Shown: positions 33,001-63,978 of the stretch, piece by piece
Numbering within the stretch: position 1 is the first letter of the stretch
Layout: the number at the start of each line of letters is the position of its first letter
Program-made: the position numbers and the translations under genes
Source: Leucoraja erinacea
Lineage: Eukaryota
Direction: 5' to 3'
NCBI RefSeq assembly: GCF_028641065.1
Contig: NC_073392.1
Location: 24,800,001 to 24,864,000 of the forward strand
DNA length: 64,000 nucleotides
Notes under the pieces: generated by a model
Seen by the model: the letters and a program-made list of their open reading frames with translations, nothing else
Databases searched by the model: none
What the model was told of the DNA's origin: nothing

Positions 33001-36000
33001 AGTGCTGGACACTGTAACGTGCTGGCATTCTCTTCCCATGCTCTGGTTGTGAAGGGCAGGGAGGGGAGAGAGACGTGTCTTACCGCCTTGGTGCTCTCCT
33101 TGAGTGGGATGGGTTGCAGCGAGACGACCAGGCGGGCAGAGAGGGCCAGCGCACACACCGTGATCAGGAACAGCTGTGAATGCAAGAGACCGCGGTGAGG
33201 GAGCACAGCACACAGGGTGGGGGACAGACAGACTCTGCACCCAATCCCACCCTTAACCAATGTCCCGGAGGAGCAGAGGGGGAGAACGGGAGGGAGAGGG
33301 GCTGAGAAGGATGAGGGCGAAGAGTAAAACAGAGGACTGAGACACCAGGAACTGCAGGTGCTGGAATCTTCAGCAAAATATAAAGCGCTGGAGGAACTCA
33401 GCAGGTCAGGCAGCATCTGCGGAGGGAATAGACAGGTGACAATTTGGGATTTGGGCCGGGACCTTTCTTCAGACTGATTGAGTAGGGGGGGGGGGGGAGA
33501 AGGCTGGAAAAGAGAGGGGGGGAAACAGAAAAAAGCCTGGCAAGTGATAGGTGGATACAGGGGAGGGAGGTGATTAGCAGATGGGTGGAGTAAGTGACAA
33601 AGGCTAGAGGTGAAAATGAGTCAAAAGGGTGTCAGATACGGAGAGAGAGAAGAGGAGATATATCAGTGAAAGGGTATGGGGGGGGGGGGGATGGGGTTCC
33701 GGTTTGTTTGGGTCTGGACCGCTCTGCCGGGGGTGGCGGAGGCAGATACGAGAGCGGCATTTGAGAGACTTTGAGATAGGCTCATGGATGTGCCGGAAAT
33801 TGTGGTATCTGCATTATGTGCAGGCAGATAAGAGTTGGACTAGGCATCATGTTTGGCACGGACAATGTGGGCCGAAGGGCCTGTTCCTGTGCTGTACTGT
33901 ACTGTTGCATGGTCTAAATTCTAAAAAGGACAGGGGGGGGGGGGTGGGGGATGATAAACAGCAAAAGGAAAATGTTGGAAACACTCAGCTGGTCAGGCAG
34001 CGTGTGTGGGGGTGGGTGAGAGAGACCGTGTCAATGTTCCAGCTCGGGCTGTGCCATGTTGAGTGTTGCCAGCAGCGGGGACGCGGGCGGTGGGTTTGGT
34101 GACTGGCGACACGTACGTGAACCAGCTCCTCTGCCGTCCCCGCGGAACGGCGGGCAAGACCACGCTGCAGCCGCTCACTCAGCTGCTCCGAGTCACCCCG
34201 AGGCAGAGAGACAGGTCCAACACAAACGCCGACTCAAACCTGCAGACGGGACGGAGGGCCTGGGGTTAGTGGGTGGCATTGTACACGGGGACCCCAGCCA
34301 CACTCCCACCCACCCACACTCTGACCCATCCACACACCCAGCCACAGACCCACCCACTCACACTCTGACCCATCCACTCACCCAGCCACAGACCCACCCA
34401 CCCACACACACACGCACACTCTGACCCATCCATAGACCCACACTCCCACAGGCCCACCCGCCCACAGTCCCGCCCAGCCACAGACACACACCTCTGACAC
34501 ACCCACCAACTGACTCACTCACTGACCCAGCCACCCACAGAACAAGCCAGACTCAGGTGTACGCAAGGAACTGCAGGCGTGGAGTCTTGAGCAACACACT
34601 AAGTGCTGGAGGAAATCAGTGTGTCAGGCAGAATTTGTGGGGTTTTTTTAAACAAAAAAATGGTTTATTGAACTAGTCCAACACTGATTTTCCAGCAACT
34701 GGTGGTTTGGCTTCGCCTTTCATCCGGACAAAATTATGAGAACGAGCTTGAATTGCCCCCCTAGAAGTCTCCCCGAAAATGGGAATGGGAAGGGGACTTA
34801 AAATGTTTGGTGACTGGGACATCACATAGGGCAAGGTGGACTGAGCGCAGGTGTTCAGCGAAACAGAAACAAAATATTTATAACAAATAAATATCAAATC
34901 ACTACATAACCATCCCGATTGTGGATCCACTCCATCCCCTGTAGTGCCCTGCAGTCCTGGAATGCCATCACCATGCCAGTGGGAGCCCTGGACATTTGGG
35001 TAAGGACAGGGGGGGGTGAGGAAGGGGGGAGGTGTCAAGATCCATAGGGGACTGAAACAAGCCCTTTGGCTCAATTCATCCATGCCGACCAAAGTGACCC
35101 ATCTAAGCCACTACCATTTGCCTGCGTTTGGCCCATATCGCTCTAAACCTTTCCTATCCACCTGTCCAAATGTCTTTTAAATGCTGTAATAGTACCTGCC
35201 TCAACTACCTCCTCTGGAGGCTCATTCCATACACCCATCACGCTCTGTGTGTGAAGGTTGCCCCTAAGGTTCCCATTAAATATTTCCCCTCTCACCTTAA
35301 ACCGATGTCCTCTGGTTCTGGATTCCCCACTCTGGGTAAAAGACTCTGTGCATCCACCCAATCTATTCCCCTCGTGATATTTGACACCTCTATAAGATCA
35401 CCCCTCATCCAAGGAATAAAGCCCTAGCCTGCCCAACGTCCCCTGTAGCTCATGCCCTCGGGTCCAGGCGACATCCTGGTAAATCCTCCTTGCATCCTTT
35501 CCAGCTTGACGACATCCTTCCTACAGTAGGGCGCCCAGAACCGAGCACAGTGCTGCAAATGCGGCCTCACCAGCTTACCACGCCAGCACCTTGTTGAGGT
35601 ACGGGAGGTCCACTTGCCCGGCCACAACACCAGCAATCTCCGTGGGCAACAAGGACAAAGCCACCGCCCGCAGCTCTGGCTGGTTGCAGGTCCTGCTCCG
35701 GAACATTCCGTTAGCCAGCAGGCAGAGGAGGTGCGTCTGTAGTTGGGGAGAAACACGCTGTAACACATAGACTGAATGTAGAAAGCAAAACGGTTTGTCA
35801 TTTATTGTAATGGTATTGATTATATCGGTTATTGACACATCTCAGATGCCCAGGAACAAAGGAAACTACAGAAAGTGCCCGGTCCATCACAAGTACTGAC
35901 CTACAGGAGTAACTGGGGAACTACAGGAGGCGCTGCCTCAAAAAGCTGCCGGCATCATCAAAGACCCACAACACCCTGACCATGCTCTCGTCTCACTGTT

Positions 36001-62438: not shown

Positions 62439-63978
62439 CAAAGATCCAAGATAGGCTACTCCTGCTAAATGCAATGGACTGACGTGTAGTACGCTATGGA
62501 GGGGATCATGGGCATTTTTCCACGCCCATTTTAGCAACCTGAGCCTACCTAACCCGACCCGACTCGCACTGTAATCAATGTTGCGGGGCAACAGTTTGTG
62601 TGGGTCAGATTCATAAATCTGTCAGTTCAAACTTCTTGTCAAGAATAAAATTTGATTCTGGTAATTGTCTTTTTTAATGTTTTTTAAATCATTTCTTTTT
62701 AAATGGCTCACAAGCAGTGTTTGAGTTGATTTTGTAGTAACCGGAACCGACCCGACTCGCAGGGTGATTGACAGGGGGGGACTTTTTGTGCGTGATTATA
62801 GGGTTAGATTCATAATTCTGTTAGTTCATAATTCTGTTGATTCTTGTTAAAGAATAAAATGTTTGTAAACACACATACATGAAAATTATATAAATGTATA
62901 TAACACACACAATTATATTTCTTCTAATCCAATAATGAACTTTATTTCAGACTAGACAAGGGACATTAAATAAGAAACATTGTAAATAAGAAACATTGTA
63001 AACCTCCCTGCAACTTCACACACACTAGGCCTTATCCCCCCCGGCACTCTCTCGCCTGCCCCCTTACTACAATGTCCCCCCTCCTATGCCCCTCTCCTCG
63101 CCGCCCCGGGCCCCGCACTCTCTCTCCTCGCTGCCCCGGACCCCGCACTCCTTTCTCCCCGCTCTCCTCTCCTCGCTGCCCCGGACCCCGCACTCCCTCT
63201 CCCCGCTGCCCCGGACCCCACACTCCCTCTCCCCGCTGCCCCGGACCCCGCCCTCCCTCTCCCCGCTCCCCCGGACCCCGCACTCTCTCTCCCCGCTGCC
63301 CCGGGCCCCGCACTCCTTCTACCCGCTTCCTCGCTGCCCCGCACCACGCACTCTCTCTCCCCGCTGCCCCGGGCCCCGCCCTCCTTCTCCCCGCTGCCCC
63401 GCACTCTCTCTCCCCGCTGCCCCGGACCCCGCCCTCCTTCTCCCCGCTGTCCCCCTCTCTCTCCCCCCTCCCCCGGCTCCGCACTCCCTCTCCCCGCTGC
63501 CCCGGACCCCACACTCCCTCTCCCCGCTGCCCCGCACACCCGCACTCTCTCTCCCCGCTGCCCCGCTCTCTCTCTCCCCGCTGCCCCCGGCCCCGCCCCC
63601 TCTCTCCCCGCAGCCCCGCGCCCCGCGCTCCCTCTCCCCGCTGCCCCGCACCCCGCACTCTCTCTCCCCGCTGCCCCGCACCCCGCACTCTCTCTCTCTC
63701 CCCGCTGCCCTGGACCCCGCACTCTCTCTCTCCCCGCTGCCCCGGACCCCGCACTCTCTCTCCCCGCTGCCCCGGGCCCCGCACTCCTTCTACCCGCTGC
63801 GGATCCAATCTTTGGCCGGAAGCAAGAAGGCGGGAGCAAGAAAGCGGAGCAAGATAGCGGACCAAGATGGCGGAGTCAGGTTGCTAAAATGTGTCCTATA
63901 ATCACCCATGAATCCGCCCATGAGCGTACCTCACGTTTGCGTGAGAGTAACCCATCTTGCTCCGCTATAGGATCTTTG
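62439..63978. mobile_element. Non-autonomous DNA transposon, P-element-like (1540 bp, 8-bp TSD GTCTTGTG)
   Basis: gtcttgtg|CAAAGATCC ... GGATCTTTG|gtcttgtg; perfect 16-bp subterminal inverted repeats at 62527-62542 and 63876-63891. Confidence 0.88.
63085..63800. repeat. GC-rich ~30-bp minisatellite (CCCCGCACTCCCTCTCCCCGCTGCCCCGGA) inside the P-like element
   Basis: More than 20 degenerate tandem copies; source of spurious repetitive ORFs. Confidence 0.93.

Follow-up and report, generated by a model that had tools for sequence, protein, structure and literature searches.

A two-base frameshift in exon 7 of the little skate XPC gene: a probable consensus error in the assembly

We find that the frameshift in exon 7 of the XPC gene in the assembly of the skate Leucoraja erinacea is very likely a residual consensus error, in which a short CT run carries two extra bases, and that the animal's own XPC is likely to be intact, with a 121-nt exon 7 and a protein of 908 aa. 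We reach this reading because none of the four public contigs that extend across the site contains the extra bases. A preliminary description of this locus had left the choice between a null allele and an assembly slip; the slip is supported by these four contigs, and a null allele, with loss of the nucleotide excision repair (NER) sensor, is not. The discrepancy in frame is already flagged and corrected in the public annotation, and there is nothing new in the gene itself.

The XPC gene and its exon 7

The window (the whole stretch of 64,000 nt that was analysed, positions 24800001-24864000 of the assembly sequence) contains XPC on the minus strand, in 16 coding exons between 23869 and 44450, which we placed against the RefSeq protein XP_055503902.1 (908 aa). 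Exons 1 to 5 (44450-44318, 40746-40566, 38513-38443, 38104-37993 and 37666-37582) match this protein exactly, as do the large exon 9 (32113-31259) and exons 10 to 16 (30076-29916, 29052-28971, 27286-27152, 26938-26769, 25716-25623, 25022-24933 and 24057-23869). Between them lie exon 6 (35736-35579, 158 nt), which ends in phase 2, exon 7 (34239-34117), which is 123 nt long in the assembly, and exon 8 (33173-33084, 90 nt), which is in phase 0. Each of the 16 exons was placed behind an AG acceptor, and each of the 15 introns begins with GT. Exons 1-6 together (740 nt, phase 2) give the first 246 residues of XP_055503902.1, and exons 8-16, read in phase 0, give its last 621 residues exactly.

On sequence grounds the gene is an XPC/Rad4 orthologue, with both its domain order and its best full-length match to vertebrate XPC supporting this assignment. 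Four Pfam domains of XP_055503902.1 (PF03835, PF10403, PF10404 and PF10405) score above their cut-offs at residues 508-801, with Rad4 at 508-604 and BHD1, BHD2 and BHD3 at 611-801. Human XPC is the best PDB match (9xyu_H/8ebs_H, phmmer E 2e-223), and the alignment is ungapped through the exon 5-8 region. A protein search with exon 9 as query returned XPC proteins with skates and rays on top, and the cluster of the top match (37 members) includes XP_055503902.1 and the XPC of Amblyraja radiata, in which exon 7 is open. The exon-7 pattern is present in 104 of the 116 XPC proteins compared, with a length of 40 residues in 102, 39 in one and 41 in one; the earlier identification of the gene, and of a 40-residue length for this exon, was thus right. 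XPC, together with RAD23 and centrin, binds damaged DNA and recruits TFIIH, as is established in mammals and yeast, and is the usual damage sensor of global-genome NER.

Two TMEM43 exon pieces (PF07787; 20836-22328, plus strand) lie tail to tail with XPC, approximately 1.5 kb from its stop codon, a neighbourhood that we take to be the same in the human genome. At the end of the window, the sequence at 62970-63901 is repetitive and rich in GC and has long open frames on either strand; it looks more like a tandem repeat than like a gene.

Exon 7 is 123 nt long where the frame needs 121, and the joined coding sequence (2,729 nt) is not a multiple of three. The shifted frame reads 20 residues and then meets a TGA at 34181-34179 (minus strand; codon 267), which lies 1,739 nt ahead of the last exon junction and is met in no other frame than the shifted one of the assembly. 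This stop would delete all four Pfam domains and, at such a distance from the last junction, would likely lead to degradation of the message; if real, it would make the allele a null. Within the exon is a plus-strand AGAGAGA run (7 nt, 34205-34211), and XP_055503902.1 is reproduced only by 2-nt removals between 34213 and 34204. The phases of the flanking exons, the position of the stop and the return to a 121-nt exon on removal of one CT from the run all hold as the preliminary description gave them, and its observation that the other 15 exons are open is borne out by their exact match to RefSeq. No second lesion was found among these 15 exons, and all introns are GT-AG; nor was a second intact XPC copy found in the assembly, which the exon-7 region matches only once. 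In intron 6, a degenerate tandem repeat (34293-34482; period 44, approximately 3.6 copies, 85% matches) lies a short way upstream of the acceptor of exon 7 and may hamper read mapping and polishing nearby.

The RefSeq record is entitled 'LOW QUALITY PROTEIN: DNA repair protein complementing XP-C cells' [Leucoraja erinacea], and its protein reads through the site, being identical to the window in the 15 open exons and, once 2 nt are taken out of the run, in exon 7. This label, known here by record name and sequence, marks a correction and is not proof of error. As described in the Merfin preprint (10.1101/2021.07.16.452324), it denotes a frame-breaking indel marked for correction; an assembly may have as many as 1 in 10 of its genes corrected in this way and still be accepted, and almost all rejected assemblies derive from ONT or CLR reads. 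False frameshifts are likewise documented in vertebrate assemblies ('False gene and chromosome losses', 10.1101/2021.04.09.438906). Such errors are common enough for the prior to have favoured an assembly error already. One published little skate assembly, not necessarily the present one, used PacBio CLR reads with two rounds of Racon and one Illumina round; the single specimen behind it had a heterozygosity of 1.56% (PMC10115646).

Public contigs across the site

A search with the exon-9 sequence listed 24 sequencing runs, eight of which were compared at the site, with four of these covering the exon-7 run. Two bases at 34204 are absent from all four covering contigs (three samples and three studies, under the same organism label), and exon 7 is 121 nt long in each. 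The contig comparison reports the place (34204) and number (two) of the absent bases rather than their letters; most simply, the extra bases in the AG/CT run (34204-34211) are one AG unit, and the protein is the same under the neighbouring alternative. Reads and transcripts free of the extra CT had been named in advance as the observation that would count against a null allele, and this is what is seen at contig level. The evidence at the site consists of contigs, one per DNA run and at a depth below 10, and contigs collapse variants, such that they show the presence of the intact form and not the absence of another. At 88% likeness, no contig of runs X14 and X17, from two other organisms, fell on exon 7, and both runs are hence uninformative; the raw-read run X23, approximately 1% of which was sampled, gave four reads on exon 8 but left exon 7 uncovered.

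Two of the covering contigs come from DNA runs of a single sample, S1 (X1, depth 6.88; X2, depth 8.5), and each spans the whole of exon 7 without the two bases. They differ at 34191 (plus strand; Ser/Pro at residue 263), 14-20 nt from the AG run, where X1 has A, as in the window, and X2 has G. Contigs of this type are built at a word size of about 31 letters; position 34191 and the run fit within one such word, so that either path ought to represent a haplotype that is locally real. Both haplotypes of S1 appear to lack the insertion, provided that S1 is one diploid animal.

The flag on sample S1 marks it only as a possible origin of the assembled DNA, a status supported by its share of 104 sampled exon-9 words (1.00 in X1 and 0.97 in X2, compared with 0.46-0.79 in ten runs from other samples with the same organism label). 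Moreover, residue N435 of the window is D in all ten Logan proteins that span it, N435 itself occurring only in the window and in the RefSeq form. Word shares and the N435 pattern both fit S1 as the source of the assembly, and we infer that S1 is the animal behind it, and a single diploid. Across intron 7 (33972-34095), the X1 contig has four substitutions (34059, 34074, 34088 and 34095) and extra gaps, and the X2 contig matches the window, from which S1 looks heterozygous here.

The other two covering contigs are presumed to be RNA, as is that of a third run, X3; none of the three is on record as RNA, and the contigs do skip the 943-nt intron, joining 33173 to 34117 in three of three runs (X3, X7 and X10). 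In X7 (study P3), a 3,990-nt contig joins exon 8 directly to exon 7 and lacks the two bases, with 122 letters set against 124 window positions. The X10 contig (study P5) also lacks two bases at the run, and both reach the ordinary acceptor end of exon 7 (34239-34240); the X3 contig covers just 24 nt of the exon and stops short of the run. A G>C change at 34210, found in the X10 contig only, turns Ser 257 into Cys in the open frame. Nonsense-mediated decay would likely deplete a null transcript, and RNA contigs consequently under-report a null allele.

Logan proteins, which are transcript-type data, make up 13 of the 15 listed among the 37 cluster members, and all ten that span exon 7 are open there, in a set that is biased to long open frames and for which the organism of each protein is not given. 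Compared with XP_055503902.1, the 13 proteins show 4-14 residue differences each, with S263P, A233T, R322G, T332A, A578P and M608L recurring, a level of variation that suggests either high coding polymorphism or a mixture of close species.

Alternative explanations for the extra bases

An alternative reading is that the sequenced skate carries a real, rare XPC null in the heterozygous state, produced by a recent CT slippage, with the assembly having taken that haplotype and the mRNA being degraded. We consider this very unlikely, and it is equally doubtful that such an allele segregates at low frequency in this wild, bottom-dwelling fish. Slippage is indeed plausible at a dinucleotide run such as this one, the proteins compared show the gene to be very polymorphic, and contigs, which are what covers the site in place of raw reads, can hide one allele. 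However, both bases at 34191 occur in S1 without the extra bases, and one diploid has no third haplotype; the heterozygous null consequently requires that S1 be pooled or come from another animal, or that the path of a contig be mixed within 20 nt. In addition, a shifted head or tail occurs in none of the 116 XPC proteins compared, in a search that is biased to long proteins (its threshold of at least 504 aa places the 266-aa truncated product outside its reach). Were the null instead fixed across the species, XPC would be a young unitary pseudogene, which we regard as extremely improbable. The assembly's own sequence is what speaks for it, together with the single match of the region in the genome and the lack of a second intact copy among the matches found there, yet the open form is present in three samples from three studies with the same organism label and in the 3,990-nt spliced contig, and the rest of the gene is without lesion. 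The covering DNA and presumed RNA contigs rule out a fixed loss, unless all runs are mislabelled. Indeed, neither a null nor a pseudogene is indicated when the lesion is found in 0/4 covering contigs, and an intact spliced transcript is represented by the X7 contig and by the spanning Logan proteins.

It is also extremely improbable that the insertion is real and is bypassed, with the frame restored by alternative splicing, slippage or RNA editing. Several splice forms would indeed be open on paper. The preliminary description had proposed joint skipping of exons 6 and 7 as the sole rescue, and that form is open (815 aa), but skipping of exons 6, 7 and 8 (785 aa) is open too, as are the forms that use a donor at 34230, 34224 or 34197 or an acceptor at 34177, which lacks a pyrimidine tract; it was correct that acceptors yielding an exon 7 of 116 or 143 nt do not restore the frame. 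The open alternative forms would all lose conserved residues, and the contigs of the runs compared contain none of them; in these contigs, the ordinary donor at 34117 is used in all three presumed RNA runs and the ordinary acceptor end is reached in the two that extend to it. Above all, the DNA contigs themselves lack the extra bases, so there is nothing to bypass. On the contigs, the exon frames and the single genome match, we rejected rescue by splicing or editing, and likewise a second copy of the gene.

A consensus error, by comparison, involves a short indel in a simple repeat of an otherwise intact gene, as is typical of false frameshifts, and neither DNA run of S1, the possible source, contains the indel. 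Under this explanation, noisy long reads would have over-counted one repeat unit in the CT run and polishing would have failed to remove it, with the heterozygous base 14-20 nt away perhaps helping the error to persist. The intact protein would then serve as the usual damage sensor of global-genome NER.

Significance and comparison with known systems

The case matters only as a caution. At 34204-34211 the assembly would mislead gene-loss screens and the design of CRISPR guides or primers, and other single short frameshifts in the skate genome should be checked on read data before losses are called. A vertebrate XPC loss, if real, would have been surprising, and homozygous skates would offer a natural model of xeroderma pigmentosum group C if the null allele were true; the present data do not support such a loss, and the titles and abstract openings of the literature searched contain no report of XPC loss in fishes or elasmobranchs.

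The closest parallels are the published false frameshifts of the Merfin and 'False gene and chromosome losses' studies, which, from what those accounts describe, likewise combine a short indel, an intact gene, absence from short-read-type data and a low-quality flag, although they rested on raw read pile-ups or k-mer counts, whereas the case of skate XPC rests on contigs. With regard to the gene, the skate sequence has the Rad4 transglutaminase-like domain and BHD1-3 of vertebrate XPC (human) and yeast Rad4, and with two bases removed its exon-7 segment has the 40 residues seen in 102 of the 104 matching proteins. Once these two bases are discounted, the skate protein differs from other vertebrate XPC only by the usual low-complexity divergence of the N-terminal and exon-9 regions.
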